64,000 nucleotides of DNA, from contig JACPJV010000006.1 in NCBI GenBank assembly GCA_016187395.1, positions 62,345 to 126,344 of the forward strand, written 5' to 3'. Source of the DNA: Candidatus Aenigmatarchaeota archaeon (GTDB lineage Archaea > Aenigmatarchaeota > Aenigmatarchaeia > GW2011-AR5 > JACRAC01). The translations under genes were made by a program, and so were the position numbers. Of this stretch, positions 2,616 through 62,443 are shown one piece after another. Position 1 is the first letter of the stretch. Each line of letters opens with the position of its first letter. The notes beneath the pieces were generated by a model that was given only the letters and a program-made list of their open reading frames with translations, had not been told where the DNA came from and searched no databases.

Positions 2616-2703
2616 GAAGGAATCTGGAGGGGAAATTTTAAATAAGAACAATCAGTATCTTGAATTTCGTCAGAGATTTATAGTTCTGAATCGTATATGT
2701 TAA

Positions 2704-3834
2704 ATGCCGCCTGCGCAGACCGATTCGCCGGAGCCTTATTTTGAAGAAAGGATGAGAGGATTCACGTTAGACGGTCGCGAGGTTAGGGATCGCTTTTACC
2801 CCAGCCGCATGTCTGCCTACGGCCTTGCGAAATCCCTCTGCGTTGGCTATGTGGAAAGAAGAGACATTTTTGAACAACGTCTTGCTGAAAGATTCTTTTC
2901 TTACATCGACGAGACGCTTAAGTTAAAAAGCCTTCAGGATAGGAAGCCGACAAAGGAGGAAAGAAAAAGGTACAAGGCATTTGCACAGGCATTCAAGGCG
3001 GTTTTTCAGGCTAATGTGGAGTCGCTTGCCCGCTCGGCTTTGAGGGACAACTATGTAGATGCAGAGTCATATTCAAGACCTGGCGTGTGTTATGAATTTA
3101 ATTTTGGTTATGTTACCGTGCCTCTTGCTGATAGTGAACGTCAGCTAAATTCCGCGATATTCAACAGGCGTGTGCAGAATATCATCAACAGGCTTGCAGA
3201 AAGCCCGGGGTTCAGGACTGTATGTGAAGATTTTATGCTGGTGCAGGAATTAAAGGACGACCCCGAACGCTTTGGAGAGCTTGAAAGGCTCTGCATTCCG
3301 GTTCTCCGGAGATTTGTTGCAACCCACCGCACCAGAGAGTTTGCTTCCAATGACCTGTATCAGGAAGGGTTGCTGGTTGTATGGAGGTCTGCGCAAAGCT
3401 ATGAGGGCAGGAACTTCGCCCGCTTCAGCACGATGGTAAAAGCAGGACTTCATAATAAGTTTTCTAATCTGATGGAGTATTCTATGGCTGACAAAAGAAG
3501 GATAAACCGCGTTGCCTTCAGAATCGGCTCAGGAAATCCTGACGATTCCTATATGGCGCAGAAATGCGACGAGGCTGCTTTCCGTGCCTGGGATATGGAA
3601 CAGAGAGAGCAAAGGGTAAACGGACATTTCGATCCCTTTGCAACCGCTCCATTATCGGATTTGTTCCATCTTCATCCTCGCGTAGAATATTTTGGCGGAG
3701 GGTCTGACTCGGAGTCAGATTGTGAGATTGAAGCGGTTTCCCTGGAGACGAATGAAGTAGTTACAGACGCAAATTTCCCTCATCTGAATGAATATCCGGT
3801 AAGCACGTGGGGAAAGAAGCTGGAGGCAGAATGA
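2704..3834 (+). CDS. hypothetical protein with sigma-70 region-2-like (ECF-like) segment
   Basis: Segment NDLYQEGLLVVWRSAQSYEGRNFARFSTMVKAGLHN matches the DLxQExFLxAWRxxxxFxGxSxFSTWLxxIARN pattern of sigma-70/ECF region 2. No recognisable region 4. Start uncertain. Confidence 0.45.
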   Translation: MPPAQTDSPEPYFEERMRGFTLDGREVRDRFYPSRMSAYGLAKSLCVGYVERRDIFEQRLAERFFSYIDETLKLKSLQDRKPTKEERKRYKAFAQAFKAVFQANVESLARSALRDNYVDAESYSRPGVCYEFNFGYVTVPLADSERQLNSAIFNRRVQNIINRLAESPGFRTVCEDFMLVQELKDDPERFGELERLCIPVLRRFVATHRTREFASNDLYQEGLLVVWRSAQSYEGRNFARFSTMVKAGLHNKFSNLMEYSMADKRRINRVAFRIGSGNPDDSYMAQKCDEAAFRAWDMEQREQRVNGHFDPFATAPLSDLFHLHPRVEYFGGGSDSESDCEIEAVSLETNEVVTDANFPHLNEYPVSTWGKKLEAE

Positions 3835-3885: not shown

Positions 3886-4242
3886 TTGATGTCTATGTTA
3901 GCAAATGCCCAAAGATTTGAGCGCTTTTTGGCAAGAAGGGGAAGCTTCAGGGTACAATGCCCTCGACAAGAACGCGGACGTGTCTTCACAAGACGTAAGT
4001 ATGATGTGTTTTTGGATGGCGAGAAGATCGGCGTTTATACAGAGGTTGAAGGGAGATTTCTAAGCGGCGGGATGACATCCGAAGGCATAATTTCGCAGGT
4101 TTTTGAAGGGCGCGTACCGGGTTATGAATTTTCGACCCCTCAAATAGTTCTTGAATATTCACGGGATAAAGGTACGGGATTTCCTGCAGGAACAAGAACA
4201 TCTTCGCGGAAAGACGGGCATGCGTCAATACCATTTCCCTAA
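3886..4242 (+). CDS. hypothetical protein (118 aa)
   Basis: ORF only. Basic N-terminus. Confidence 0.3.
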   Translation: MMSMLANAQRFERFLARRGSFRVQCPRQERGRVFTRRKYDVFLDGEKIGVYTEVEGRFLSGGMTSEGIISQVFEGRVPGYEFSTPQIVLEYSRDKGTGFPAGTRTSSRKDGHASIPFP

Positions 4243-22100: not shown

Positions 22101-25100
22101 ACCGTTTCTTCACTTGTTCTGATATCGCGAAAAGCGCTAAGCCTTGTTATTTCTATTTTGCCTAAAGTTTCTTCGCCTAATATTGTCTTCGGAATTCCAT
22201 ACGGCATTGGGTCTACGCTAAAACTTGCCGCAGGCTCGCTCTGTCCGTCCGGAATGATATCTACCATGATCATCGTTGGATTTGATGTCTCGCCTGTTTC
22301 GATTACAGCAGTATTCTCTTCATCAGACATGTATATCGTTTCCGAATACCACTGATACCCCCCGGGATCGTTATAGTATACAACTGCGCTTGCTCCGCCT
22401 GGCTGGCCCCAGTAGAGATTTCTTATGATTATCCTGTCGCTGCCTTCCTCTGTGAATTCAACGCTTCCTAAAACTGAATTATACTTCCTATGAGCTTTTC
22501 CTGTATCCATTCCCAGCCTTGTTGTGGCTAATCTCTCATTTCCGCGCAGCGCGGTTATTTCTATGAGAAGCCTCTCAGGATCGCCGAGCGGAAGCTCCTC
22601 CAGAATTAACTGACCCTGTATCCATCTTTCATTCACGATCTGCGTATAATCCCGATGAATCCCTTTCGGTGTGCTCGTGCTCCATGAAAGATAGTGAACC
22701 TCGTAGCTGTCTGCCTGAGGGTGCGCTCCCCATTTGAAATCCAAATCATACCATTTTCCTGTTAGATCTCTGATAGTAATTCCTTTTTCATAGGTAATCT
22801 TGGTGATTTCAACATTTGGCCACTGCAATCCAGGAGGTGCTGGTTTGGCTGGCGGTACAGGTGGTGACGCAAGGCATGACTTCCACGCATCCCAGTAAGA
22901 CATTATGCCAGGAACGTATTCGCGGGTTTCTGCAGGAGCATCAGCACCTGTCCAGTCACATCCTCCGGAATTGTATCCTGCCAGGGAATTCCGAACGCTG
23001 CCTTCGCAGGCTTCCTTGCCGCTGACAGCTCCGCTAATCAGGGCATCAAAATATCTTACGCCGCATTTTATGTTATCTGCCGGTTCTCCCGGAAAAACGC
23101 CAATATCCTTGCAATACGTATCCCATGTAAGAGATATGGCCGGGTCATTGACTATCTGCATCAGGCCGTGTGCGTTTTTCGGGCTAATTGCATACGGGTT
23201 CCAGCTGCTTTCCCAGCTTATGATGGCTGCTATCAATGCTTTCTGTTCTGTCTCGTTTGTCACAACTTCTTTTAGATTATTCGCATTTTTCAATGCCTCT
23301 TCAATTGCTGTCTCGTAATTATTATAATCACCCCTCTGTTTTGTGCATACCTGCGAAGCAGGAACCCTACTGACTGGCGTGCCGCTGACCTGCGTAAGCT
23401 CCAATTCTGCTGCCCTGCACGTGCGTGTATCCGCTCCTTTGCCTGTAAGGAACGTGTCCATTTCGCCTGCAATCTGCTTTACTTTCTGGTTGTCCAGCGC
23501 TTCAGCAGCTGCGTTGCACTGGTCTACTTTGCCTGACAATGCTCTCCAGTCAGCCCTGTCCTTAAGCCGGTTTATGCATGAATTGAACTGGGTGCATTTT
23601 ATCTTCAGCTCGCTTATTGCGACGCTTTTGAGGTCCCTGGTGCAGTAATACGGATCTGTCAAGGGCTTTGTTGTGCTTACATGGTTTAGGTCGTCGCAGG
23701 AGATGCGGCATTCTCCTTTCACTTCATTTTCTTCTACCTTAAGGCATAACCGCGTATTGTGATCTCTCTGAAAGTCAGGGCTCAGGCATACTTCACACGT
23801 AAGCGTTCCTTCCTGCTCCAGATCTGCAAAAACCTTGTTTTTCTCTATTCCAGTCTGCGTTTCTACCTTAATCCTTTCTCTAACAACAGCAGTGTCTGAT
23901 ATTATCTTTGCGATCTCGCAGCGCTCCCTGTCTCCTCCTGTCACGACTTTCTCTGCCTTGCCTTTGCCTTCTACTGTCTGTCCTTCTCTAGGTGATTGAT
24001 CCAAAGGCACGCATTCCCTGACAACCCTTCCGTCGCTTTTCCAGACCACGTGCGTGCCCCTTGCTTCGACGCATTTCAGGCAATCGCTGCCGAGCTTTGC
24101 AAATTCAGCAGCACTCCACTGCTTTGACAACTCAGACTGGCTTAATCCGCATGAGTTGGCAGAAGAATATTGCTCTGTCGTGATCTCGACCTCGCCGGCA
24201 CTGCATGAATCTGATGACAAGACGCATCTTCCCAGGCCTGTTTTTGGAATGTTTCCACCGCCTGGCAGAGGAACGTAGACGCCGCTGACTCCGGATATCT
24301 GGCCGTTCAATTCCTTGATCGGCGTTGCGCACCACTTGCCCGGAACGATCGGGAATGTAGATGAACACTGCTCTCTGGACGTGACTGATGATTTTCCTTG
24401 CGGGCATATCGGATCTGTCCTTACTGTCTGACCATTTTCAATATACTCACATTTTTTATTGAGAATTGATCCGTCATCGTCTCTGTCGCATATCGGAGTT
24501 GTTACTCTCCTGTCTGTATTATCCACACACGCTATTCCGAACTTATCGACGCTGCTTAGGCACGATGCCAAGGCTCTTGCATTATCCGGGCTTCTTGTCA
24601 GGCATTCGTCGCATGTCTGGGATTGCGACGCTATGGCGCGCTGCGCTGCAGTCCTTCTTTGCGCAGCTTCGTCCTGGATCTGCTCGACCATGCCTGCCAT
24701 TGTGTCCATGAATGACCAGAAGCCTGCGTTTGCCCAGTAAATGTCAAACTTAGACGGCTTCTGGCACGATTCTGCCGCAAGGCTGTAATCTGCAAGGTCG
24801 TAAAGCTGAGTGCTGTGAGCCATTGGCAGGGAGTCGAAGGTCCACCACGTGAATATAATGAACCTGATCTTGCAGAACTGGAAATTGATTCCAAAGAATT
24901 CCTTGATAGGAGTGTTGGCTGTGCAATATTGGGTAGGCACGAGGTCTTTCTGCTCTTGCTGGATCTCTCCTACCGCTACTTTTTTATCCAATTCAAGGTT
25001 ATGGTTTCGCTGCGCGTCTTCTATGGCCTGTATGTAGAGGAAACCGAAAACGCCCTGGAACAGCCTTTGCATGGCTCCGCCGCCACCGAATGCTTCTGTG

Positions 25101-27037
25101 AGCCATCCGTGCACAGAAGATGCGAGAATCGTGGCAAATAATTCATTCTGGTTTATAGATGCAGGGACGTACATATCAACAGTAGGTGGTGCCGGCACAA
25201 CTCCCAGCTTGTCCCTGGACCAGTTGTTCACGCTGTCCAGCGCTTTTGAAAAGCCTTCCAGCATCGTGCCTGATGCAGGCAGCAGCGCCCACGTAGGCTT
25301 GTTGCTGCAGTCATTTCCGATGCAGGGCTCGCACGTGCCGTCTATCTGGTATATGCATAAAGGCTTTGTGCCGCCGCTGCTTTTGAATGTGCGCCTGCTG
25401 ATCGCGCCCTTGACTTCAATTTCCTCGCCTGCGAATGTTGCTGTTGGGGTTACGTTGAAATCTGCTATGAGCATCGTATCAGGAAACGGGTCTATTTCCC
25501 TTAGAACAGGCGAGCCTGTGTAATTGAATTCCAGCCGCAGGACGCGCGCATTCACAGGCACAGACGAGAAATCAAAATATTGCACAAACTCCTTTTGCCC
25601 TGTGCCAAGCTTCTTGTTTACTTCGAATGTCTTGAGTCCTGCGGTAATCTTTGTCAGCGTGATATTATCATTCCTATCCCATGTTTCTAATGAAAGGCCG
25701 AAATGCGGATAATCCTGATCAAATTCTATTGTGCAAAATGCCTGCTTTGCTTTGGCAGACGTTGCGTTAGGCTGCTGATCTGCTTCCTGACCAGATGCCT
25801 CTCTTCCTGGCGGAGCTGTTCCTGGCTGGCCTGTGCCAGGGTTTGGTATAAGGGAGGGTGTTGCAAACTGCGGTAGTGGTGCAGATTCATCGGACGGTGC
25901 AAACTGGAAATAGGAATCCCTGTCCAGGTCAACCAAATGCCACGGGTTCTGGAATGAAATTCCCTGCTGCCTGGAGCGCGGCTCTGCAGGCGGCGCACAC
26001 TGTATGCTCCTGATGCTGATGGGTTTCGGCCCTTCTGTTGGCGGGGAGAATTGCGGCGGCTCGGGCAACAAAGGCTGCTCGCATCTCAGCGTGTCAGGCA
26101 TTGTATAGAATCTGGATAATGTATCATAGGACTGCAGGGATGGCTGGGGTATATATCCCGGCGTGCCCGGATAAAGAGGAGGGTAACTGCTTCCCAACGT
26201 CTGCTGCAAAACCCCGAATATGCGAAGCTGGCTCGGGTAGGGAACAATCCTGTACTCTATCGGAAGCGTGAAATCATTTTGTTCAATTACACTTTTTGGT
26301 ATGAATACGTTTGCTGAAAAAGGGCCTTCGCCGAACGCGGTTGTGCCGCTCACAGAGCCTGGCTGGCCAAATCCCGCGCTGCCAAGCCCGAAGCCGCTGA
26401 GACCTGACTGGGCCGCGCCCAGCTGTCCTGATCCCCTTACATTAACCTGCAATGCCTGCCCTCCGAACCACAGGCCGCGCACTGTTGCAATGTAATAATT
26501 CTGCCCTCCGACCGGCCTGCATTCTTTTTCCACAGGAAGGATGAAGAATAGTCCGAGATCGCGTATGTCATTCCATATGTCGTCTTCAAATTTGTAGCAA
26601 GCGCAAACCAGGGAGGATGTTCCGCACGCCACCTCTGGAAACGGCTCGGCATCTGTGACATACCCTCCGCTGCTGACCTGGTTCGCAGGCGTGCACGTCC
26701 CTCCTCCCTGCGGATAAACGTTTTTCTTGCAGAAGGAGTTGCACGCCAGGTCGCGGCTTATCTCGCAGTAACAGAAAGGCTTTTCCCTTGCGCACAGGGT
26801 AGCATCAGGGTGAAGCTGCTTTGCACCCACGTAATCCCTGGCATCGCTGCAGGAGCCGCCAACACCATAGAGCTGCTGGCAGCCTGTGCCGCACTTTTCG
26901 TCTCCAGGCGGCTGGGCGGCTGGCTGGGCGTATATTGGGGTGCCTAGAAGGAAAAATGCTAATATGACTAACAGCAGCGCTTTTGCAAAACGCATAGTAT
27001 TATTAGAAACCGGGTATAAAAATAGGTTTTCAGACAA
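16121..27037 (-). CDS. giant cell-surface protein (3,638 aa) with SLT lytic-transglycosylase domain, YWTD-like beta-propeller, CARDB/Ig-like repeats, discoidin (F5/8 type C) domain and C-terminal TM anchor
   Basis: Uninterrupted 10.9-kb ORF. N-terminal signal peptide (MRFAKALLLVILAFFLLGTPIYA). Cys-rich N-terminal modules. SLT signature ES-x-WNPYAIS-x5-GLMQ near aa 1275-1295 (nt ~22870-23290). Repeated YWTD/NHL-like blades ending RIYWSE (aa ~2165-2400). FGPTLAIDSDPSTFWESP discoidin domain (aa ~3460-3586). C-terminal hydrophobic helix then basic tail REKIRLWIEYKRS. Confidence 0.85.
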   Translation of the reverse strand: MSENLFLYPVSNNTMRFAKALLLVILAFFLLGTPIYAQPAAQPPGDEKCGTGCQQLYGVGGSCSDARDYVGAKQLHPDATLCAREKPFCYCEISRDLACNSFCKKNVYPQGGGTCTPANQVSSGGYVTDAEPFPEVACGTSSLVCACYKFEDDIWNDIRDLGLFFILPVEKECRPVGGQNYYIATVRGLWFGGQALQVNVRGSGQLGAAQSGLSGFGLGSAGFGQPGSVSGTTAFGEGPFSANVFIPKSVIEQNDFTLPIEYRIVPYPSQLRIFGVLQQTLGSSYPPLYPGTPGYIPQPSLQSYDTLSRFYTMPDTLRCEQPLLPEPPQFSPPTEGPKPISIRSIQCAPPAEPRSRQQGISFQNPWHLVDLDRDSYFQFAPSDESAPLPQFATPSLIPNPGTGQPGTAPPGREASGQEADQQPNATSAKAKQAFCTIEFDQDYPHFGLSLETWDRNDNITLTKITAGLKTFEVNKKLGTGQKEFVQYFDFSSVPVNARVLRLEFNYTGSPVLREIDPFPDTMLIADFNVTPTATFAGEEIEVKGAISRRTFKSSGGTKPLCIYQIDGTCEPCIGNDCSNKPTWALLPASGTMLEGFSKALDSVNNWSRDKLGVVPAPPTVDMYVPASINQNELFATILASSVHGWLTEAFGGGGAMQRLFQGVFGFLYIQAIEDAQRNHNLELDKKVAVGEIQQEQKDLVPTQYCTANTPIKEFFGINFQFCKIRFIIFTWWTFDSLPMAHSTQLYDLADYSLAAESCQKPSKFDIYWANAGFWSFMDTMAGMVEQIQDEAAQRRTAAQRAIASQSQTCDECLTRSPDNARALASCLSSVDKFGIACVDNTDRRVTTPICDRDDDGSILNKKCEYIENGQTVRTDPICPQGKSSVTSREQCSSTFPIVPGKWCATPIKELNGQISGVSGVYVPLPGGGNIPKTGLGRCVLSSDSCSAGEVEITTEQYSSANSCGLSQSELSKQWSAAEFAKLGSDCLKCVEARGTHVVWKSDGRVVRECVPLDQSPREGQTVEGKGKAEKVVTGGDRERCEIAKIISDTAVVRERIKVETQTGIEKNKVFADLEQEGTLTCEVCLSPDFQRDHNTRLCLKVEENEVKGECRISCDDLNHVSTTKPLTDPYYCTRDLKSVAISELKIKCTQFNSCINRLKDRADWRALSGKVDQCNAAAEALDNQKVKQIAGEMDTFLTGKGADTRTCRAAELELTQVSGTPVSRVPASQVCTKQRGDYNNYETAIEEALKNANNLKEVVTNETEQKALIAAIISWESSWNPYAISPKNAHGLMQIVNDPAISLTWDTYCKDIGVFPGEPADNIKCGVRYFDALISGAVSGKEACEGSVRNSLAGYNSGGCDWTGADAPAETREYVPGIMSYWDAWKSCLASPPVPPAKPAPPGLQWPNVEITKITYEKGITIRDLTGKWYDLDFKWGAHPQADSYEVHYLSWSTSTPKGIHRDYTQIVNERWIQGQLILEELPLGDPERLLIEITALRGNERLATTRLGMDTGKAHRKYNSVLGSVEFTEEGSDRIIIRNLYWGQPGGASAVVYYNDPGGYQWYSETIYMSDEENTAVIETGETSNPTMIMVDIIPDGQSEPAASFSVDPMPYGIPKTILGEETLGKIEITRLSAFRDIRTSEETVSIRAEWLPVTGVDSYSYQAIMVQDETVVEACFQELFGDETSNTCSGTSPPGFVPETAEAALFAYDSSGELIAIGTAAAVFYAISAAPSEVSFSDEPLAYDPSVDTPATFDPLLQNKAELQFGTRYPAGSPLPPQPVYGTRDTRARPYEMLARSYQTQFFFQMRELLTRGESIYRRSSVRQPGLGAGFEGKCEQLDTVGSLGVHDRTRQVLVGKLDHVLPLPSEYHTIEGAIVPETADVDIIVIDQNGTVVENSTIQANFTGAEGVFTHRFVVPMPGNYLVLAKPASEVSSPGLEVISAQDRPPPAITSQSAVCSPEGVPAEFALTITEPAIQSSSTEYLLEVLSPQAGAGFVAISGEGASIEPAASVVVNPDSTVAVPMQSSSPGPISVRITNNKGFSTVKQTNHQSLNNADVDIRAKISSASQSSLREWGYPLVVNSSVPQGCAPYLFALQGEAPGSGWTSDFETPAGEPVGAVDLSKGQQELIMNVFPTGGSIGTYTGYAMISESLPEPVSSEIAADALFIATDQNNFIYYTTTEGRLRSVSTGGATGIDYSIGSLPGGIALDSGNIYFAAAGAISKTAKNAFTPSDMARGIGNATHVAVDNQNAYWLDGGKIKRVVLNANAQNCAGANCLFASASAKGLALDSRFVYYTEDDSVKRIPKDGGSEEILYKNKAGINDVFVAGDDIYAAVNGGTGKGKIVKIAGDGTPADPLSGGSNGDVPIAIGRPHISSIAVYSNRIYWSESGAIYSSSLSQISDYEALVYAYQPGAPLITIVPGRMLAPAGEAAEYDVRIDNLADTALTLDISLSEIPAGWSISADTSEVSLQRKGASGDSQSFKVEVASPPGAQISDSINWCVTAKTTGISGQACSSYVISQSLRPSVSWQLAEGYSLPARPRVPVAFDITVKNENPPEFAAQSPVNVEFDVPDGWEAEFVFGNDFLQEINAEFGPQESLQMELFITPSRTAVDGDHKVFVVAELGGGVRGVAEITIPVKGCGNYVCEPERGETSQSCAADCSFNAGIFKCPVFGSGAGFDYYTCMQPKDNTTEMSVDIALEQTLFGQEVRACRRGATPEQCLASQCGITRTGISGTLKDCAAELDPTGRGVFGDNYNNEVACPTDVEDDIYFYIRGEDVTGTNIQSYRSVNYSFACPFYNLERLASAASRWSSIVQNCPSVVARRISEGERVCADILKEACAWREDHLQLLDAALLNPSKSSIESLLEDTESLEERIQARIATSCIGIPGLEILGIVPPGTFVGETAKISMSVANSFGEDYRGFASCEVARSDGTMVEPKSSCTLFRSGETPVEIPIFLDSAGTWTINSCTVHGDLASAISEQECEQAPEFSSKNVGMSFTVTAPETSIVSPREGAVLSGTASVEAVIRGTFDEIDFSVSANSRQCAGAPLFSMQAEGSGDKKTYTAAWNTASFADKSYWLCVIAKAGTTSTFLGSVFVAVNNYDFLLQPSSEQKTVSAPVDHEITITNTGFSDSYSISCTSNASATLQAGSSTKQCGAGQIQASIQTGNSLVAKISLPKRTSLTTLTVINNQSEQKQSILIITEGQGNLAPAIANARAEPSSVQQGGSVKFYAELRDAESDNITRAEACLDSICSEKLCTMSRDGAGYSCTAAVGKNPGSYTWYVSARDSAGSSSTSAVQQLVVTPPGGGCAYTCLPSCTDNVQLCLDREQREGTCTAGTVCCRENTMPACTPSQEGCGITIEKSTCVFDPVKQKYVASVQAVRTGGNYTVISVSGVQSQRLYAESMSYQADFSDSDPKSISIGVYGSTYSEPLICSETGTIICGGAQDFYEPAGLSLSIANAFAKSSAAGFGPTLAIDSDPSTFWESPLPAWIKVDLSQEMSVNGIGIYSQIDRPRSFSIEVSKDDSTYLEVADVDNAQYERDWNVTYFGPATARWVRINIDEAERADRSIVKIFELRVYGTRIGLAGDQGAGGAAQGEFPWALAAVIAIVIIVVIVILINREKIRLWIEYKRS

Positions 27038-31501: not shown

Positions 31502-34500
31502 TTATACCCTAATCATATAATCCTTCAGCCAGACACTCCACCTCTTGTATATCTCTGGGCTGTCCAAAGTTCCGGATTCCCTCAGAACTTCATCCATTGC
31601 AGTATGAAAGGCGGAATTGCTTTTCACCATTGATTCTGCCTCGATCAGCTCAGGCTTGCGCTTTCCTTCCTCAGCAAGCGTATGCAAGATGCGGGAACGT
31701 AAATTCACGTTGTCCCAGACTGCTTCCCAGTTCAGGCTCCACTCCTTGACTCTTGATGCAATATTGTTCAGCACTTCGGATTCTCCTGTCAGCAGGGTCT
31801 GCGTGGGTTTTAGCTTGTCTTCAGCTGCATTGTACTGCATCAGAGGCACGAATCCATTCTCCTGCAGAGGATCCTTTTGCCAGTGCTTCCGGACTTCGGT
31901 TATCTCGACGATCCTCCGGAACGTTCTCAGGCCATCCGGAGACCGCAGGGTGTTTGCGATTATCACTATGTCCGTTGCCTTGAACGAGGTGGGAGGAACG
32001 CCCAGATCATTAACAACGCGGTCAAAGACGCCGTATGCAGACTCGCCGTGTATGGTTCCTGCCACCACGTTTGCCAGAGCTCCTATCCTCATTGCCTCAT
32101 ATAACGCAAGCGCCTCGCGGCTGCGGACCTCACCTACTATCAGGGCTGAATCTCCCAGACGCAGCGCTGTGCGCAATGCCTCTTCTGCAGGCAGCTCTGT
32201 TTCTATGCGCGTTATAACCGATCGAGACTTCAATCTTTCAACGTTGAATCCTATATCGCGAAGAGAGTTGACAGGCAGCTCTAGAGTGTCTTCCACCGTA
32301 ATCACCCTCACGTTGGGCATTATCTGCACCATGCAGCTGCCCAGGAAGGATGTATTATGCGCTATTATGCCGTTTGCCACAAAATTCGGGCTGCCCTCCA
32401 CTTCGATATCATAGACAAACTCCTCTTCGGGTTTAATGTGCTCTATCTTTGCTATCTTGTCCCAGAATATATCAGAATCCGCAAGCTGCTTTATCATTTT
32501 TATGTTCCTTTCGGCCTCGCTGATTTCTCTGCATATTATTTCCAGTCCTTTGCATATGCCCTCCACAATCTTCAGCCGTGGCCGTCTGTATCTGCCTCTT
32601 GCTATTCCGGAAATAGTTCCTACGCTTATTCCTGATGCCTCTCCCATGCGCTTATGCGATATTAATTGCACGGCATGCCTGAGTGAGTTGAGCATTTTTG
32701 TTTCGTCGGAAATTTCTGCTCTCATACCGAAATATCCGAGAATTTTTCCCGATGTTTCGGGTCGCGGATCCGGACATCCTTTCTTGTATTTTTTGAATAT
32801 TCGTGCGCTTATCCCTGCTCTTCCGGCAGCTTCTGCAAGATTTGCGGGCAAAGGATTGTCTTTAACAAGATTTGCGAGCATCCTGGTTTTGCGCGCATAC
32901 TCGGTTAAATCATAATGCAAACTATAAATCAGGCTTAAATTATGCAGCCTTCTTTCCGCAAGAGATACGAATTTTCCCAGCTTTTTTCTTCCAAAAGAAC
33001 AAGTTTCGTTGCAATATACCCAAAACTCCCCGTGGGTTTCTATCTCCAGTGCCTTTATTGTTTTCTTCACAACAGCGCCTACGCCGGGCACTGTATCCAC
33101 GTTTGTGTAATGTCCCTTTCTGATTTTCCCGATTTTGGACTGCAATATAGCATGCTTTCTCGGGTGCAAAAATCCTATTTCCCGCGCGAAAATGTCAATG
33201 TTTTCGCCTGTAATCATGATTCTATGATATTCCTTTCCCTTCACAATCTTAGGTTTCAGAAAGCTTATTATTCCGAATTTTAGAAGCATAAGCTGCATTT
33301 TCTGTGCAACATCGCGGCTTGCTGTAGCGAATTCTATGCCCCTGTCTCCTACGCTACCGTCGCAATCGAAATATGCGCGTATGAATCTGCTTGTATTTTC
33401 TTTGCTCATTCCCAGCGTCCATGATGGCAATACGAAGTTTTCTGACTTCTTTCCGATGGGGAAGCCAAAAACCGATCTGAAAACCTTTGCCAAAGCATTC
33501 GACCGTATGACAACCATAGGCGAACGCTTTTTCGGGAAATTTGTACTTGGATCATGCCCGAAACATTTTTTCATCAGTAATCCAGCCCTGTTTCTCATTT
33601 CTTCCACGGTATTGAAGAATGCCACTTCTGCCATATCCACATGGCCATCACCTGCCAGATAACCAAGGAGCTCTGCGAGTTCGGGGGTAATCTTCTTAGG
33701 CACTTTGACTGCAAAGCCGGCTGTCTTGCTTTTTATCCACAATTCTTCCGGAGAAGCTTTCAGCAGGCTTAGAGGCACTGCCTTTGCTTTCTCATCCATT
33801 TTGACATAAATGCCTTCTTCGTGCTGCAAGGGCGCTAAATCGAAATTCTCAAAACTGTTGGCGTGGGGGAGCATCCTCGCAGCGGCTATGCAGCTTCCTT
33901 CGCAAAGCATTTCGGCTCTGATTTCCTTTATTCCGTTATCAACAGTAAAATAGATGTGTTCCGGGGTTGTTGTTATTGTCCTTCCAGAAGCTGTTTTTAT
34001 CCTAATAAGTTTTTTCGGCGCTCTTCTCTTATATAATGCCTTTACCTTATGCTTTTTCATTCTCATATCCTCTCCAAGAGAAGTTACGTGCAAATCATCT
34101 GGAGTGCAAAGAAAACCATCCTCGGTGTTGATTGCCTTTTCCTTTATTTGGTATTCTACTATATCCTTAATCTTAACAAGCTCGCCGTTTCCCATAGAGA
34201 TTATGCTGTTTCCCTCTACACACTTTCCGCTGCTGCGCGTACCTGCCACGAGGATGGTCCGTGCGCCGTCAATCAGAAACCATATAAGCCCTGCGCTGAA
34301 GGCATCAAGCATCTTTGTATTTATGAAAAGGGGCAGTGTCCAGGGTTTTTGCCTGAACCGCCTAAGTGCGAAGGCAATGCCGTCCGGCGACAGCGGCCTT
34401 GTTATCGCAGCTACTCTGGCGCGACCTCCCTTCACTTCTATTTCTGTATCCAGGACAGGGTTTGCCTCGTCCAGCGGCCTTCCGCTCTGTATCCTGAAAC

Positions 34501-35641
34501 GCGTTGCCCATGCCTCTGCATCACTGGCGCTCGGATAAATGTTTGTTATACAGTCTCCAAATTCTGCGTGACGGATGAATACAGGAATTGCACCGACAGG
34601 GGAGTTTATGAGGATGTCCTGGATATTTTCATCTGCCAGCAATATTTCTATTATGCCCATTCCTGCTGTGTACCTTGCAAGTATGTTAGCAAGCCTCTGC
34701 ATCCCCTGCTCATCAATATCCTTGTTCTCGGTCTGGGATATGTCCCTGATAAGATCCACGGCAAGGTTGAACATGTTTTTGCGGAAAAGATCGGGCTCTG
34801 CTAATTCTGCTTCAGACGGCTCGTGCGCCCCTATGTACCTTCTGGCTCTTTCCAGAATTTCATATTCCTCGTAATTCATATTGAACTCTCCTGCTGACAG
34901 GTGATAGAATCTCTCCACCTTTCCTGCGATGCGAAATATTGAAATTATGGCGTCGCCGACCCTGTAGCGGTCGATGAGCTCTGCGTTTTCCGGAAAGCTT
35001 GTCTCCAGCCTCGTATACATGAAAGTAGGCCTCGTTGAGGGTCGGAACAGCTTTCTATAGATCGTCCTTCCCCTTATTTTCAGCTCCCTTGCGCGCTTTA
35101 TCATTGCGGTTTCCTCGAACATCTTTCGAAGGGGCATGAGGACTTTCAGCAAATAGTGAGTAAAACAGACGCGACATGCGTTCTTGTCGCCACCCTTTGT
35201 TTCCTCTATATCTTCGCCTTCTTTCAGCTTTTTGATTTTATGCTTTATCATCCTCGTTTCTCTTACAACTGTGAGGTATGCAGAAACAGGGTCGTATTTT
35301 ATGTTTTCTATTGCTGCCCTGATCTTTGCAAAGGCGTTGGGAAGATAATCCTCGCAATACGAGCCTTTCAGTATGTTTTTCAGCGAGATGAAATTCTGCT
35401 TTCTTATTTCCTCTATCAGGCCGGCTATTTCGAAGAGCATCCTGCACTCTTCATCGCTATACGTGTATTCGCGTGCCTCTGCGACAACGGTTATCCTCGG
35501 CTCTGCCTTTATTTCCAGGATTTTACTTATGAGAGCGCCCATGCTGGGAGCGTAATCCTCGAAGCTTTGCCCGTACGGCACGTTGATTACAAGCCTTTTC
35601 GAATAAGGATCGTAGTCTATGCTGAATCTGCCCAATGCCAT
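31502..35641 (-). CDS. FlaI/VirB11/TadA-family secretion ATPase interrupted by a LAGLIDADG intein in the Walker A loop
   Basis: N-extein ends ...ILVAGTRSSGK and C-extein starts TSFLGSCMVQIMP..., reconstituting the P-loop GTRSSGKT. Intervening 624 aa begin with Cys and end ...VANGIIAHN, with two LAGLIDADG motifs (LLGYLAGDGHV; FIRAYFDCDGSV). Confidence 0.8.
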   Translation of the reverse strand: MALGRFSIDYDPYSKRLVINVPYGQSFEDYAPSMGALISKILEIKAEPRITVVAEAREYTYSDEECRMLFEIAGLIEEIRKQNFISLKNILKGSYCEDYLPNAFAKIRAAIENIKYDPVSAYLTVVRETRMIKHKIKKLKEGEDIEETKGGDKNACRVCFTHYLLKVLMPLRKMFEETAMIKRARELKIRGRTIYRKLFRPSTRPTFMYTRLETSFPENAELIDRYRVGDAIISIFRIAGKVERFYHLSAGEFNMNYEEYEILERARRYIGAHEPSEAELAEPDLFRKNMFNLAVDLIRDISQTENKDIDEQGMQRLANILARYTAGMGIIEILLADENIQDILINSPVGAIPVFIRHAEFGDCITNIYPSASDAEAWATRFRIQSGRPLDEANPVLDTEIEVKGGRARVAAITRPLSPDGIAFALRRFRQKPWTLPLFINTKMLDAFSAGLIWFLIDGARTILVAGTRSSGKCVEGNSIISMGNGELVKIKDIVEYQIKEKAINTEDGFLCTPDDLHVTSLGEDMRMKKHKVKALYKRRAPKKLIRIKTASGRTITTTPEHIYFTVDNGIKEIRAEMLCEGSCIAAARMLPHANSFENFDLAPLQHEEGIYVKMDEKAKAVPLSLLKASPEELWIKSKTAGFAVKVPKKITPELAELLGYLAGDGHVDMAEVAFFNTVEEMRNRAGLLMKKCFGHDPSTNFPKKRSPMVVIRSNALAKVFRSVFGFPIGKKSENFVLPSWTLGMSKENTSRFIRAYFDCDGSVGDRGIEFATASRDVAQKMQLMLLKFGIISFLKPKIVKGKEYHRIMITGENIDIFAREIGFLHPRKHAILQSKIGKIRKGHYTNVDTVPGVGAVVKKTIKALEIETHGEFWVYCNETCSFGRKKLGKFVSLAERRLHNLSLIYSLHYDLTEYARKTRMLANLVKDNPLPANLAEAAGRAGISARIFKKYKKGCPDPRPETSGKILGYFGMRAEISDETKMLNSLRHAVQLISHKRMGEASGISVGTISGIARGRYRRPRLKIVEGICKGLEIICREISEAERNIKMIKQLADSDIFWDKIAKIEHIKPEEEFVYDIEVEGSPNFVANGIIAHNTSFLGSCMVQIMPNVRVITVEDTLELPVNSLRDIGFNVERLKSRSVITRIETELPAEEALRTALRLGDSALIVGEVRSREALALYEAMRIGALANVVAGTIHGESAYGVFDRVVNDLGVPPTSFKATDIVIIANTLRSPDGLRTFRRIVEITEVRKHWQKDPLQENGFVPLMQYNAAEDKLKPTQTLLTGESEVLNNIASRVKEWSLNWEAVWDNVNLRSRILHTLAEEGKRKPELIEAESMVKSNSAFHTAMDEVLRESGTLDSPEIYKRWSVWLKDYMIRV
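32354..34225 (-). other. intein (624 aa) with LAGLIDADG homing-endonuclease domain, inserted in the ATPase P-loop
   Basis: Codon boundaries checked on the nucleotide sequence: Cys codon tgt at 34223-34225 (minus strand), terminal Asn codon at 32354-32356, followed by Thr (+1 nucleophile). Confidence 0.75.
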
Positions 35642-49888: not shown

Positions 49889-50035
49889 GTGGGCCTGACG
49901 GGATTTGAACCCGCAACATCTTGCTTAAGAGGCAAGCGCTCTATTCCCTCCGTTCCCTTCCATCCCTTTCTTTGGGGTTCTCCAAGACCTTTCTTTCGGG
50001 AAAGAAAGGGATTGGACCAGGTTGAGCTACAGGCC
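49889..50035 (-). tRNA. tRNA-Lys(CUU) with a ~73-nt intron in the D-loop (non-canonical position ~20/21)
   Basis: Minus-strand read GGGCCUG-UA-GCUC-AACCUGGU[intron]A-GAGC-G-CUUGC-CUCUUAA-GCAAG-AUGUU-GCGGG-UUCAAAU-CCCGU-CAGGCCC-A. All four stems pair (one G-U in T-stem), U33 present, anticodon CUU. Intron contains hairpin CCUUUCUUUCCCGAAAGAAAGG. No CCA encoded. Confidence 0.8.
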
Positions 50036-50104
50036 CTTGGATGGAGAATAGGGAATTAGAAGATATTAAAATCATAGAGGTGATTTTCTATTCAGTGTGA
50101 TTTC

Positions 50105-55246: not shown

Positions 55247-55590
55247 GAAAATCACCTTCAGACTCTAAGATTTCATATTCAAAGGTTTTTATAGGCGGAA
55301 GCCTCCACATAAAACCTCCGCTTTTAATGCAAACCAACTTAATAAACGGCATATGATATGTTGGTTTGCAGTATGCTGAACAACTAAACCATATGGCGAT
55401 TATTTAGTTGTTCAAGCATAAGCGGAGGATACAAGGAGGAACAACGTTCCTCCTGTACAGCAGGAGCTATGCTCCTGCTTGTATGCTACAGAAGGCTTCC
55501 GACATGCTTTGCAAGCATGAATCGAAGATTCATGCTGCACCGCAAGAGCTTCGCTCTTGCTTGTGCTCAAAGAAACCCACGCCTTTAGGC

Positions 55591-56463
55591 ATGGGAGTAT
55601 ACGGAGCAAATCATATGGATATGCAAAAGGAAGGCGCAACAGAAGCGCATCGCGAAAGAAGCGCGAAAACAGCAGCTGCTTCAAAGGCTTATAACATTTA
55701 TAAACTTTTCGGTGATAACAATTTAGTGACAGTTATGACAACAGCTACTTTGCCTGAACTGACCGGGAATCTTGTCGTGCCAGCTGCCGCAGGCAGCTAT
55801 CCTGCATTGGGCGCAGCCTACAGGCACGAAGGTTCTTCCATCGATTACTCACCATGGCTTGTAAGAACAGGCAAAAACTATTATGGCTCCAAAGCAGAAA
55901 TCCCGGAAGGCATAAGGATGTCCACGGCAGCTGAAGAGCTTGCTCTGCAGCTTGCCCTGGAGAAAGCAGGCAACGACCCAAGAAATGCAGAAGTTTTCAA
56001 CGACCTTTTCGCCAGAAATGAAGAGAAATATTACGCATGGCAATGGACAGAAACAGGGCTCCGCGTGCCAAAGGGCCGCAAGCCTGATGCTTATGAAACT
56101 GATGCGCAGGGCAGAAAATACTGGCAGCGAATATTGCTTATTGGCGACCAGGAAATAGGCGACTTCCCTGTTCCAGAAGGCAATGGAATGGTAATTGTCG
56201 AATGGGACGAGGTTTCCGGACTGCCCAGAGTAACAGAGCAAATAGCTTATCCTCACGAGCCATACACAACACATTTCTGGTTTAATCCTAATCCTGATAA
56301 AGACAAATTATCAGGTCACTACGACGTTGCCATCGGGCGCAGGGGCGCCTGGCCTCACGGTGTGGACGCCAGGTGCCTGAGCGTCGATGCGTCCTACGGG
56401 CGCTGGGATGCGGATTCCGACGGCGGGCTTCCGCCCTGTTCGGGGGTCGCTTCCGCAGATTGA
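55591..56463 (+). CDS. DGR target protein (variable C-terminus; CLec-like VR ending ...GRW.A.SDGG)
   Basis: The last ~40 codons contain the variable repeat (56326-56435). Start uncertain (ATG at 55591 or 55615/55621). The longer frame from 55408 is rejected because it spans an intergenic hairpin array. Confidence 0.6.
   Translation: MGVYGANHMDMQKEGATEAHRERSAKTAAASKAYNIYKLFGDNNLVTVMTTATLPELTGNLVVPAAAGSYPALGAAYRHEGSSIDYSPWLVRTGKNYYGSKAEIPEGIRMSTAAEELALQLALEKAGNDPRNAEVFNDLFARNEEKYYAWQWTETGLRVPKGRKPDAYETDAQGRKYWQRILLIGDQEIGDFPVPEGNGMVIVEWDEVSGLPRVTEQIAYPHEPYTTHFWFNPNPDKDKLSGHYDVAIGRRGAWPHGVDARCLSVDASYGRWDADSDGGLPPCSGVASAD
56326..56435 (+). repeat. DGR variable repeat (VR) followed by GC hairpin (IMH-like)
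   Basis: Aligns to the TR with 12/12 cleanly alignable substitutions at TR adenines. Immediately followed by GGCGG-gctt-CCGCC hairpin absent from the TR. Confidence 0.75.
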
Positions 56464-56846
56464 GAAAGAGCTTGCAAGAATAAATCCAAAGGAAGTTGAG
56501 GAAGCGCTCCTGCAAAGAATGAGAAAGGATTTCAGAGAAACGCCTTTTCCGGAATTTCTGGCGAAGTATAAATTATAAATACTGAAGTTTGTTCTAATTT
56601 ATTGTCTTGGCCAACGCCGGTTGCATATCAAAAGATTGGCGCCAAAAAAGCCTGTCCCAAAGCACCAGTCGCATGTGCATCGGCGACCCCGAACTACATG
56701 CCTGTTCGTAGATGAAGCTGTGTTTTGGCATAGCTTATGACATGAAATACAGCAGCGATAGCTGGTAAAGGCAGAAGTTGATTTTGCCTCGAACGCTAAA
56801 GCTGCAGTGGGGCAGGCATTTGCTGCCTTTGGCGGGCAGGCTACAA

Positions 56847-57042
56847 GTTGCCATCGGGCGCAGGAGCAACTGGCATCACGGTGAGGATAGCAATTGGGTT
56901 TCAATTGCCAGCATATACGCCAGGTGCCTGAACGTCAATCTGCTGAAGGTTCTCGATTTTCAGCAGAGCGCAGATGCGAACTACGGGCGCTGGAATGCGA
57001 AATCGTTTCAAAACGACGCAAATTCCAACGACGGCTTCCGCC
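56847..57042 (+). repeat. DGR template repeat (TR), adenine-rich (many AAC/AAT codons in frame)
   Basis: gttgccatcgggcgcaggAgcAActggcAtcacggtgAgga...cgccaggtgcctgaAcgtcAat...gcgAActacgggcgctggAatgcgAaAtc... Contains three in-frame blocks (30, 36, ~18 nt) absent from the VR. Confidence 0.75.
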
Positions 57043-57069
57043 AATAGTTCTGGCTGGCCAAGACTCATA

Positions 57070-58131
57070 ATGAAATCTTACAGCAATCTGTATGGTCAGC
57101 TATGCTCTATGGAGAATCTGAAGCTGGCGTACAAAAAGGCGCGGAAAAGCAAAGTCTCCAGGTGGTATGTTAAGGAATTTGAAACGGATTTAAGCCGGAA
57201 TCTGTTGCAGTTGCAAAAAGAATTGCAGGAGATGAGCTATGAGCCAAGACCGCTAACACAATTTGTAATCAAAGACCCGAAAACGCGGATAATCTCCGCC
57301 TCCAATTTCCGCGACAGAGTTGTTCATCACGCTTTATGCAACATTATAGAACCAATTTTCGATAAAATATTCATATACGATTCTTATGCCAACAGAAAAG
57401 GCAAAGGCACGCACGCAGCGTTGAAGAGATTTGATTGTTTCAGGCGAAAGGTTTCTCAGAATGGCAGATTATTGCCAAACGCCAGAGACAACAACCAAGT
57501 TTTTGGTTATGCATTGAAGGCAGACGTAAAGCACTATTTCGATTCAGTGGACCACGAGGTAATGATGCAGATAATAAGAAGGAAAATCAAGGATGAGAGC
57601 GTCCTCTGGCTGATAAGGAAAATTCTGGATAATCACAATTGCAAAACACCGGGCAAAGGCATGCCCATAGGCAATTTGACAAGCCAGTTCTTTGCAAACG
57701 TGTATCTGAATGAACTGGATTATTTTGTAAAGCATCATCTCAATGCCAAATACTATGTTCGTTACGTTGACGATTTTGTCATACTGGATGCCCCAAAGCA
57801 GCGCCTTGAATTCTATAATGCACAAATAAAGGAATTCCTAAAATCAATAAAGCTTGAACTTCACCCGGAAAAATCCAAGGTTATGCCGCTGCATGCCGGA
57901 GTCAAGCTCCTTGGATTCAGGGTTTTCTACAGATACAAACTGCCAAAGAAAAGCAATCTGAGAAGAATAACGAACAGAATAAACGGTTTTATTGATTTGT
58001 ACAGAGAGGGCATTATGGACAAGGCAGAAATTCTTGAACGAGTGGAGGGATGGAATGCCTATGCGATTCATGCAAATACCTATAAGCTAAGAAAGCAGAT
58101 GATGAAAAATTTACGAAAATCTTTGCGATAG
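57070..58131 (+). CDS. DGR-type reverse transcriptase
   Basis: RT motifs: RVVHHALCNIIEPIF, YALKADVKHYFDSVDH (motif A), YVRYVDDFVIL (YxDD), and the DGR-specific IGNLTSQ motif (MPIGNLTSQFFANVYLN). Confidence 0.85.
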   Translation: MKSYSNLYGQLCSMENLKLAYKKARKSKVSRWYVKEFETDLSRNLLQLQKELQEMSYEPRPLTQFVIKDPKTRIISASNFRDRVVHHALCNIIEPIFDKIFIYDSYANRKGKGTHAALKRFDCFRRKVSQNGRLLPNARDNNQVFGYALKADVKHYFDSVDHEVMMQIIRRKIKDESVLWLIRKILDNHNCKTPGKGMPIGNLTSQFFANVYLNELDYFVKHHLNAKYYVRYVDDFVILDAPKQRLEFYNAQIKEFLKSIKLELHPEKSKVMPLHAGVKLLGFRVFYRYKLPKKSNLRRITNRINGFIDLYREGIMDKAEILERVEGWNAYAIHANTYKLRKQMMKNLRKSLR

Positions 58132-58189: not shown

Positions 58190-58468
58190 CTACGCAAGGC
58201 GCTTTTCAATATATTCATCTATTTCCTTTTTCTTGCGCGAGTTGAGGGAAAGCTCAAGCCCGTAGTGCGTAGGCTTCGTAATTACCCATTCGAGTCTGGA
58301 AAGCTCGCTTATCACGTCTTTGAGCACAGACGTGTCGCGTTCATGAGGAGGCAAGCCGCCAACCAGATGGTTGATATTCATGTGTTTATGAGTCCAGCAC
58401 GCGCGGTCATACATTCTTTTTAAGACAGGAAGCTTCATTTTCTCATGCAGGCTTGCCATGCAGACCAA
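58190..58468 (-). CDS. hypothetical protein (92 aa)
   Basis: ORF only. Confidence 0.3.
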   Translation of the reverse strand: MVCMASLHEKMKLPVLKRMYDRACWTHKHMNINHLVGGLPPHERDTSVLKDVISELSRLEWVITKPTHYGLELSLNSRKKKEIDEYIEKRLA

Positions 58469-58528: not shown

Positions 58529-58891
58529 TTGCATGACAATGGAAAAATGATAGGCATGAAAGACAGCATCTTTGTGAACTATTTTGGCGACAGCCCCCTT
58601 GTGCGTATCCTGAACTTCCTTATCATAAGCAAGGATTTCGACTATTCCATGACTGACATAGCCAAAGGAGCGGGAGTTGGTTGGACCTCTTTCACGCGTG
58701 CATGGAAAATACTCGAGAAGAAAAACGCAATCGTGCAGACTCGTACAATAGGGCGTGCAAAATTGTACAAATTAAACACGGCTGACCCTACCGTGCAAAA
58801 GCTTGTAAAATTGCACTGGGAGATTATAAAGTCCGAGACAGACAAGATTTTTGGGAAGAAGCTTCCGGTAATGGTGCCGGGTAGGGTGTAG
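58529..58891 (+). CDS. winged helix-turn-helix transcriptional regulator candidate
   Basis: SPLVRILNFLI...DYSMTDIAKGAGVGWTSFTRAWKILEKKNAIVQTRTIGRAKLYKLN resembles an archaeal wHTH DNA-binding domain. Confidence 0.45.
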   Translation: MHDNGKMIGMKDSIFVNYFGDSPLVRILNFLIISKDFDYSMTDIAKGAGVGWTSFTRAWKILEKKNAIVQTRTIGRAKLYKLNTADPTVQKLVKLHWEIIKSETDKIFGKKLPVMVPGRV

Positions 58892-61642: not shown

Positions 61643-62443
61643 ATGGTGAGAAAAATGGACAAAAAGAACAATGGACCAAAAAGGAGAGAGCCTATAGACG
61701 TCTACCTGGCAGAGCTTGAGGTACATATAGGGGTAAGAGGGCTCGATGAAGACCCGACGTTCGATTCAAGCTGGAGACGTGTCAAAGAGGAAATAGAATC
61801 ATTAAAAGCAAGGGCATTGGGAGACGGTCTTCTGGGATTCGGGCCGCGCAGGGTTTTGGACGCAGACCTTGCAAGGGAAATACCCAGAGCAGTAAGAACA
61901 GGAAGCCCCCTGGCACTAGGTTTCGTAGACGTAGACAAATTTGGAGATTTTAACAACAGATACGGTCACGAAGTAGGCGATCAAGTATTGATAGCAGTGG
62001 GCATGGCAATCAGAAATTCCACACGACCAGAAGACTACCTCTTCAGGCCTGGAGGCGACGAATTGGCATACCTTCTGCCAAGGGCTGACCTGAAAGGAGC
62101 AGAAGTAGTGGCACGAAGAATAAAGGATCATATGGAAGATTATCCGGTGAAGGTTGGAGACAAGAGAATTCCAATTACTCTAAGCCAGGGCGTGACTTAT
62201 TGGGATCCGAAAATACTCCGCACATCCGTATATCCTGGTGAACTTACCCCGGAAATTGTTGAAGGGGTTTCTTCCAGAATCCTCACGCAGGCTGATTTAG
62301 CCGCGTATGCATGCAAGGAAAACGGAAGAGACGGAATATACGCCTGGATAGGCGGAGAGCCTCCAAGGAACAAGGAACTTTTTGATGCCTTGATGAGGGA
62401 AAGACCGGATTTAATGCAAAGCTTCCTCAGGAGGGTTGTATGA
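61643..62443 (+). CDS. GGDEF-domain (diguanylate-cyclase-like) protein with GGDEL variant motif
   Basis: LALGFVDVDKFGDFNNRYGHEVGDQVLIAVGMAI...RPGGDELAYLL follows the GGDEF-domain pattern (D.D.FK.INDTYGH..GD.VL......RYGG[DE]EF). Confidence 0.5.
   Translation: MVRKMDKKNNGPKRREPIDVYLAELEVHIGVRGLDEDPTFDSSWRRVKEEIESLKARALGDGLLGFGPRRVLDADLAREIPRAVRTGSPLALGFVDVDKFGDFNNRYGHEVGDQVLIAVGMAIRNSTRPEDYLFRPGGDELAYLLPRADLKGAEVVARRIKDHMEDYPVKVGDKRIPITLSQGVTYWDPKILRTSVYPGELTPEIVEGVSSRILTQADLAAYACKENGRDGIYAWIGGEPPRNKELFDALMRERPDLMQSFLRRVV

Follow-up and report, generated by a model that had tools for sequence, protein, structure and literature searches.

The 64,000-nt stretch of Candidatus Aenigmatarchaeota archaeon DNA analysed here (contig JACPJV010000006.1; hereafter the window, with positions counted from its first letter) carries a genuine diversity-generating retroelement (DGR) of a DPANN (Aenigmarchaeota) archaeon, and every core element of this DGR passed its test. 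The template repeat (TR) is 196 nt long in DNA, while the variable repeat (VR) has only 110 nt. The excess is made up of three TR-only inserts of 30, 36 and 21 nt (87 nt), and all three are laid out like archaeal bulge-helix-bulge (BHB) introns. We consider it quite probable that reverse transcription is preceded by splicing of the template RNA, carried out by the tRNA-splicing endonuclease and ligase of the host. Removal of the inserts at the RNA level, with EndA and RtcB as the agents, is what we infer from insert geometry, covariation, exact colinearity of the repeats and intron-less TR alleles; the other steps are those of the established DGR model. The repeats and inserts are located as follows.

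56326..56435 (+), VR, 110 nt, at the 3′ end of the target open reading frame (ORF), one G longer than the spliced TR and otherwise colinear with it
56847..57042 (+), TR as DNA, 196 nt, with four exons (109 nt in total) and three inserts, as given by the TR/VR alignment
56847-56886, 56917-56937, 56974-57001 and 57023-57042 (+), the four TR exons, with a sum of 109 nt
56887..56916 (+), insert and predicted BHB intron 1, 30 nt, missing from the VR
56938..56973 (+), insert and predicted BHB intron 2, 36 nt, missing from the VR
57002..57022 (+), insert and predicted BHB intron 3, 21 nt, missing from the VR
57043..57047 (+), TR-specific AATAG with a stop codon in the TR frame, the TR/VR divergence point and an IMH*/IMH-like boundary (initiation of mutagenic homing)

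Interrupted template repeat and geometry of its inserts

When the inserts are removed and the one extra G of the VR is allowed for, 13 of the 24 TR adenines are changed in the VR, while none of the 85 other positions is (hypergeometric P = 1e-10 for all changes falling on A). An earlier note on this DNA had paired 56326-56435 with 56847-57042, and the alignment confirms this pair. It had also placed all substitutions at TR adenines, which is correct, although their number is 13 and not 12; its description of the repeat as a segment of about 110 nt is true of the VR but not of the 196-nt TR, and the 87 nt of TR-only sequence had been left unexplained. All 24 exon adenines are in codon position 1 or 2. 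Among insert adenines, 6 of 26 are in codon position 3, compared with 0 of 24 in the exons. The exons have a GC content of 62% and the inserts 37-50%. Seventeen adenine-containing codons are open to diversification. Equal length and colinearity of the two repeats are not seen in DNA (196 versus 110 nt) but are seen for the predicted spliced TR (109 versus 110 nt). The repeats part after TTCCGCC, where the TR continues with AATAG and the VR with CTGTT; again, TRs of relatives keep CCAATAG and their VRs have CC(C/T)GTTC instead. No further TR/VR copy is present in the 64-kb window, as searched by sensitive blastn and with every TR adenine as a wildcard. The DGR is judged to be active or recently active.

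The BHB motif is a 4-bp helix between two 3-nt bulges that bear the splice sites. In pre-tRNA, anticodon nucleotides 34 and 35 lie within the helix and the intron follows position 37 (PMC4090602, PMC7714728), so that the cut falls after the second bulge nucleotide. The inserts show the same order of parts: an exon segment X of 4 nt, three unpaired and mostly A nucleotides, a hairpin that is perfect or nearly so, the 4-nt complement X′, two or three unpaired nucleotides and then the next exon. In intron 1, X is GTGA (56881-84), the 5′ bulge is GGA, the hairpin spans 56888-56910, X′ is GCAT (56911-14) and the 3′ bulge is ATA. The central helix H, formed by X with X′, has three of its four pairs at the register that the VR permits. 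In intron 2 the corresponding parts are ACGT (56932-35), CAA, 56939-56967, GCGC (56968-71) and AGA. Its central helix also has three of four pairs and its hairpin closes with four of four; the local fold pairs CGU with GCG. In intron 3 they are TGCG (56996-99), AAA, 57003-16, CGCA (57017-20) and AA(T). Here all four central pairs are formed, and an outer exon-exon helix is made by GGAA (56992-95) with TTCC (57023-26). The minimum-energy fold of intron 3 is itself helix-bulge-helix-bulge-helix (z = -3.0). Introns 1 and 2 would be of the relaxed (HBh′) kind, with no clear outer helix. Cuts after the second bulge nucleotide on both strands give exactly the insert lengths of 30, 36 and 21 nt and a product that is colinear with the VR.

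For comparison, 170 related loci were retrieved (designated below by L numbers, and proteins by P numbers), and the BHB-like layout is found again in more than 20 related DPANN DGR loci. The fixed geometry was threaded on TR-only inserts of at least 15 nt with clean flanks (n = 28); loose gapped alignments over-extend in distant loci, and the counts are restricted accordingly. A fit comprises at least three of four central-helix pairs and at least three closing hairpin pairs at a register permitted by the VR. Twenty-six of the 28 inserts fit, 19 of these perfectly, while shifted, disallowed registers fit in 0 of 352 cases. Eight distinct central helices are used: UGCG/CGCA, ACGU/GCGC, AUGA/UCAU, GACG/CGUC, AUGC/GCAU, CAGG/CCUG, CUCG/CGAG and UUCG/CGAA. 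Of the flanking helices, the hairpin helix h′ is formed by every insert and shows many compensatory changes; the outer helix h is clear in intron 3 only (GGAA/UUCC). Removal of the predicted introns gives gapless TR/VR alignments with nearly only A mismatches in about 20 loci, including loci with two or three VRs. The spliced TR is exactly 109 nt in the window, L167, L161 and L081, though the unspliced lengths differ.

Covariation was measured on a 10-sequence alignment of the close clade. Both partners have changed in 22 of 39 pairs, and none of 500 shuffles attains any of the observed measures. The hairpin of intron 1 has such two-sided changes in five of nine pairs, and covariation is seen in seven of nine hairpin pairs of intron 2 and in all five of intron 3. 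Hairpins and flanking short helices are paired in 87.6% of the alignment cells, and a shift of the partners by 1-3 columns lowers this to 30-46%.

In most DPANN relatives the TR is of the ordinary kind, 80-95 nt long and colinear with its VR. The closest clade, with RTs (reverse transcriptases) 70-75% identical to that of the window, shares the three sites of TR-only insertion, but the inserts differ in sequence and length: 30/39/24 nt in L167, 30/39/21 in L161 and L169, 30/30/21 in L162 and 30/30/24 in L081. L164 has the third insert alone (27 nt), and L166 has the first and third only. Same-site inserts are present where RTs are 60-75% identical, also as 21/22, 20/21 and 17/31/33 nt. One to three inserts are found in distant lineages with other target families, namely 17/31/33 nt in L001, 20/21 in L002, 21/22 in L087 and 30/30/51 in L168. 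Distant loci with a single insert are L003 (38 nt), L107 (27), L007 (26), L128 (28), L091 (23), and L005 and L105 (18 each). L005 (L052) is a contig of the published Nanoarchaeota AAA011-G17 genome. The 24-nt insert of L012 is missing from all three of its VRs, and the 31-nt insert of L152 from both of its VRs. There are no such inserts in the three bacterial relatives with a detectable TR/VR pair (L070, L075 and L080). For a whole group of DPANN DGRs we hold it rather probable that EndA cuts out one to three BHB introns of canonical geometry and RtcB ligates the exons, and that the mutagenic copying by the RT comes afterwards.

All 18 inserts of the closest clade are multiples of 3 in length. 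Optional coding segments were considered and rejected as a general rule, because lengths in L001, L002, L087, L003, L007, L128 and L152 are not multiples of 3; the lengths not divisible by 3 are 17, 20, 22, 23, 26, 28, 31 and 38 nt.

Any two of the four TRs of the window, L167, L161 and L081 have 6-11 lineage-specific differences at non-A positions, and all of these are mirrored in the VR of the same locus. Since each VR mirrors its own TR at non-A sites, homing took place after the lineages split, with the shared inserts already in place. This mirroring rules out that the inserts arrived after the death of the element. Several TR alleles lack introns and read exactly as the predicted ligated exons: L164 (without introns 1 and 2), L166 (without intron 2) and L014. 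The TR of L014 reads AACTCGAA joined directly to TTCCTCGC where L012, L005, L105, L128 and L152 have the intron. One of 64 target homologs, P0148, is seven residues longer at the intron-1 site. It belongs to locus L170, where the VR (4096-4226) contains a hairpin-forming insert of 21 nt with homology to intron 1 in the TRs of L002 and L087, which shows that the RT can read through such a hairpin. The TR of L170 (4687-4796) has no insert, and at six sites it has G or C where the VR has A. The simplest reading of this one locus would be that an unspliced template was once copied into the VR and that the TR was later overwritten by spliced, mutagenised complementary DNA (cDNA).

Proposed splicing of the template RNA and other explanations

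In the proposed mechanism, one RNA would be transcribed from about 56604 through the structured RNA domain RT-16 and the TR to just before the RT start, and a long-range helix would close this unit. The TR part of the RNA would bear three mini-introns with the geometry recognised by archaeal tRNA-splicing endonuclease. EndA would cleave in the bulges and the RNA ligase RtcB would join the exons to a mature template of 109 nt, which the RT would copy with adenine-specific misincorporation. The cDNA would then replace the 3′ end of a target gene with a predicted C-type-lectin fold and vary the 17 adenine-containing codons. Possibly, the inserts bring an advantage in that they could break TR-VR homology in DNA or make the TR DNA a poor homing target.

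Two results from the Bordetella phage BPP-1 DGR bear on this mechanism. When an intron is engineered into the BPP-1 TR, it is spliced out and the resulting RNA serves as template (PMC5703328), so a splicing step is feasible. TR-only sequence, an 18-nt segment, passes to the VR in BPP-1 (PMC12875486), and therefore something must remove the inserts here. EndA enzymes of DPANN archaea have been linked to a broad substrate range, and relaxed motifs are reportedly accepted by DPANN and TACK enzymes (PMC5829648). The window contains one tRNA gene of relevance.

50036..49890 (-), tRNA-Lys(CUU) gene with the D-arm interrupted by about 63-70 nt; the 5′ part reads GGGCCTGTAGCTCAACCTGGTC, and beyond the insert follow TAGAGCGCTTGCCTCTTAAGCAAG, the T-arm and the acceptor 3′ strand

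Rfam matches only the 3′ portion of this gene (33 bits) and ARAGORN finds none. The D-arm insert looks like a non-canonical intron, implying that the host splices unusual BHB substrates.

The main alternative explanation is that the RT skips the hairpins on an unspliced template, jumping from the 3′ to the 5′ side of each insert so that cDNA and VR lack it. RNA structure can cause specific deletions by RTs (PMC5737552), and each insert is indeed a stable hairpin between short A-rich repeats, such as GCGAAAT...GCAAAT. The L170 VR with its intron-1-like insert also means that exclusion is not absolute. However, a jump across the base of the helix would lose the exon segment X too, and the VR always retains X. 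Realignment on the direct repeats predicts a loss of 20 nt for insert 3, while 21 nt are observed. The junctions fall in the two bulges, one at either end of a covarying 4-bp helix, an arrangement that is the signature of EndA and makes no evident sense for a polymerase. Skipping induced by structure tends to be partial, yet in about 20 loci every VR excludes the inserts precisely; moreover, the three bacterial relatives lack the inserts. These points make skipping by the RT unlikely. Alternatively, the TR could have gained, or the VR lost, sequence at the DNA level in an ordinary DGR, with the element dead or with an intron-less TR elsewhere as the true template. TR/VR length differences occur in about 7% of DGRs (PMC5758913), but the explanation given for these is slippage at AAC repeats and not structured inserts of 17-51 nt. 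The metagenome-assembled genome (MAG) is incomplete and a second TR may lie beyond the window, within which none is found. Likewise, the frameshift in the VR could signal decay, but the three sites are common to lineages with RTs 70-75% identical and the VRs follow their own TRs at non-A sites. Covarying hairpins and central helices are not expected for random insertions, and three independent precise deletions per homing event are implausible, so that we regard a DNA-level origin as highly improbable.

The least probable of the explanations is that the inserts are copied into cDNA and lost at integration, either by loop-out from a heteroduplex and repair or by short-patch homing between the inserts. 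Self-complementary inserts could extrude from a heteroduplex, and the homing step of DGRs is poorly understood (PMC12875486). In BPP-1, however, TR-only sequence does reach the VR, both as the 18-nt segment (PMC12875486) and as a 36-nt ligated exon tag (PMC5703328). Loss at integration would also leave unexplained the 4-bp helix with its two bulges and covariation, as well as the exact agreement of intron-less TR alleles with the predicted junctions.

Several points weigh against splicing by EndA and RtcB. Splicing is predicted from DNA sequence. Introns 1 and 2 each lack one of the four central-helix pairs, an outer exon-exon helix is found in intron 3 only, and minimum-energy folding leaves intron 3 a 3′ bulge of just 2 nt. 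The junction registers are partly ambiguous because the junctions fall in A-rich sequence that is mutagenised by the RT. Many of the fitted inserts are homologous, and the number of independent cases is nearer 8 than 26. A de novo BHB scan of the TRs was rejected as evidence, as it gives about one match per 30 nt, equally in shuffled, reverse-complement, VR and RT-coding controls; the scan being this unspecific, the BHB statistics are conditional on the observed deletions. The bacterial comparison consists of three loci only. Finally, EndA and RtcB are not found among the 28 window ORFs scanned. To our knowledge both are universal in Archaea, and their presence in this genome rests on that.

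RNA unit, target gene and reverse transcriptase

The TR is part of a larger RNA unit.

56604..56613 (+), 5′ strand of the closing helix, GTCTTGGCCA, complementary to 57055-57064
56679..56849 (+), RT-16 RNA (Rfam RF03019), a structured domain matched over the full model 1-158 with 67 bits (gathering score 50)
57055..57064 (+), 3′ strand of the closing helix, TGGCCAAGAC, ending 5 nt before the RT start codon

The RT-16 match stops where the TR begins. Sixteen of 18 relatives also score above the gathering score of the family, and 15 of these have the end of the match only a few nucleotides from the TR start (L007 is the exception). A long-range helix of 10 bp encloses RT-16 and the TR. Its two strands show compensatory changes to GTCTTGACC/GGTCAAGAC in L081 and L082 and to GTCCTGACC/GGTCAGGAC in L086, and a G-U wobble in L087. 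A search for an archaeal TATA box before the closing helix gave TATAAATTATAAATA at 56569-56583 in the window and nothing consistent in relatives. RT-16 was defined without a function, and only RT-10 was linked to DGRs (Weinberg et al. 2017, PMC5737381). Here it adjoins the 5′ end of a DGR TR within a helix-closed unit.

The target gene ends in the VR upstream of this unit.

55591..56463 (+), DGR target (variable protein) gene as assembled, frame 1; the NCBI call begins at 55615
56425..56427 (+), GGG run with one G more than the TR (GG), a frame shift inside the VR
56436..56578 (+), C-terminal tail of the target, conserved but read in frame 2 within ORF 56387-56578; in frame in L161 and P0122

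The extra G moves the GFR motif (tail GFRPVRGS...) and the last ~47 codons to frame 2, ending at 56578. Removal of one G in silico restores DGGFRPVRGSLPQIEKELARINPKEV...KYKL and the stop, like the proteins of relatives. The gene may be truly frameshifted, by an inactivating or transient indel of error-prone homing, or this may be an assembly error in a hypervariable region. The target family comprises about 107 unnamed proteins, nearly all from Aenigmarchaeota and several per genome, and none of these has a Pfam domain. The VR segment is 37-40 aa long in 60 of 64 target homologs. An AlphaFold model of the homolog P0122, built with 64 sequences, has a pLDDT (predicted local distance difference test) of 91. 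The model supports a C-type-lectin fold at the VR-bearing C-terminus, in line with the C-type-lectin ending that the earlier note had proposed; a Foldseek search gave no significant match. The same note had taken GGCGG-gctt-CCGCC for an IMH-like hairpin after the VR. This does not hold: the hairpin sits within the VR (56422-56435), is missing from VRs of relatives and exists only because of an A-to-G change and the extra G in this VR allele. No conserved hairpin downstream of the VR was identified.

Several Aenigmarchaeota MAGs have two or three target paralogs on separate contigs (e.g. HY516_00200, HY516_01710 and HY516_04660), so some targets of these DGRs may be remote. Between the L37e gene and the target start, 55300-55590 holds a dense cluster of four to five hairpins with inverted repeats at 55325-55373, 55377-55414 and 55426-55487 and an 82-nt-spaced direct repeat (55447-55482 / 55529-55564). 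Rfam matches in this cluster are at chance level only.

The RT gene follows the RNA unit.

57070..58131 (+), DGR reverse transcriptase, 353 aa, Pfam RVT_1 (E 5.7e-22)

The translation carries GMPIGNLTSQFFANVY, the region of the IGNLTSQ motif, and RYVDDFVIL with the YVDD box, so that the RT and the two motifs reported before are borne out. IGNLTSQ fits [I/L/V]GxxxSQ and not the group II form QGxxxSP, by which the RT is assigned to the DGR type. Among solved structures the top match is 8ub7_A (E 4.6e-49), whose sequence is the brt gene product of Bordetella phage BPP-1, while retron-type and group II RTs score only ~1e-20 to 2e-20. This match and the restriction of TR/VR changes to TR adenines uphold the original identification of a DGR. 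NCBIfam has no DGR RT model; its best match, to a group II RT, stays below threshold. The RT is 100% identical to NCBI HYW25_01125, a protein of a Candidatus Aenigmarchaeota MAG, and its homologues number thousands, chiefly in DPANN archaea. An Avd gene is absent at the locus, with no ORF between target and RT except the TR frame. The ORFs at 58190-58468 and 58529-58891 flanking the RT have no Pfam or NCBIfam match. The relative L168, which also has TR inserts, has a bAvd ORF (PF22296, entry 2667-3056). A PF22296 match, apparently fused to the RT, is seen in two other RTs of the clade, P0037 and P0084.

Domain scans of the ORFs give the window a chromosomal, archaeal character, with genes for L37e, S27e, eIF2-alpha, Nre and PAC2. 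DGRs have already been described in DPANN archaea (PMC4372165, PMC5758913) and are known in Aenigmarchaeota, the lineage of the window. Elsewhere in the window, 61643-62443 (+) encodes a 266-aa protein with a GGDEF diguanylate-cyclase domain (E 3.7e-28) in this archaeal genome, and very large ORFs lie on the minus strand at 16121-26995 (3624 aa, with a signal-peptide-like N-terminus) and 31502-35641 (1379 aa).

Significance and comparison with known systems

We found no description of BHB introns in a DGR template in the searchable literature, the coverage of which stops short of the main survey of DGRs in the candidate phyla radiation (CPR) and DPANN (Paul et al. 2017). If the predicted splicing is true, natural introns would be on record in a DGR template for the first time, BHB substrates would gain a new class, and a retroelement template would join the very short list of such substrates beyond tRNA and rRNA. 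It would tie the archaeal tRNA-splicing endonuclease and ligase to a domesticated retroelement, two systems not known to interact. The DNA template of a retroelement and its working RNA template would differ, and the expected traces of this would be intron-less TR alleles, a TR overwritten by spliced mutagenised cDNA and an intron-retaining VR, the latter two in L170. It would also be a natural counterpart to the engineered-intron experiment that proved the RNA intermediate in DGR homing. RT-16, an orphan Rfam family, gains a context: in these lineages it makes up the 5′ domain of DGR template RNA. In practice, DGR finders that need a colinear TR/VR pair (e.g. a BLAST match of at least 50 bp) break, shorten or miss interrupted pairs, so that DGR activity and targets in DPANN are probably under-counted; splicing the TR in silico first repairs the alignments. 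Further questions are whether the inserts act against self-homing or TR-VR recombination, whether splicing gates diversification, and whether intron retention adds length variation to the protein.

Among known systems, the element is closest to the DPANN/CPR DGRs (AAA011-G17; Paul et al. 2015, PMC4372165) and to BPP-1. It shares with them the DGR-type RT with a TR just upstream, the VR at the 3′ end of a gene for a C-type-lectin fold, adenine-only differences, TR adenines at codon positions 1 and 2, and the divergence of TR and VR at their 3′ ends (IMH/IMH*-like). It differs in that the TR is 87 nt longer than the VR, Avd is absent and no conserved GC hairpin was identified after the VR. BPP-1 has a spacer 3′ of its TR, whereas the window has the structured RT-16 RNA 5′ of the TR and only about 25 nt from the TR to the RT start. 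Unequal TR and VR lengths are also known from about 7% of DGRs (Wu et al. 2018, PMC5758913). However, those indels are small, lie beside AAC repeats and are ascribed to RT slippage, while the inserts here are structured, conserved and 17-51 nt long, and are on the TR side in all the DPANN loci, with the VR insert of L170 as the exception.

With the archaeal BHB introns of tRNA, rRNA and a few mRNAs the inserts share the 4-bp helix, the two bulges of about 3 nt on opposite strands and the internal hairpin h′. The junctions fit cuts at the second bulge nucleotide, the length is short (17-51 nt here), several introns can occur in one RNA, presence and absence are polymorphic among close relatives, and the hosts are archaeal only. 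The inserts differ by their place in the template RNA of a retroelement, by bulges that are strongly A-rich and by an outer helix that is mostly weak or missing; their excision is predicted. The closest functional parallel is the td group I intron engineered into the BPP-1 TR (PMC5703328). There, as predicted here, the TR intron leaves the RNA, and cDNA and VR receive the ligated exons only. The td intron is artificial, self-splicing and bacterial, whereas the inserts described here are natural, conserved and archaeal, and their removal would depend on protein.

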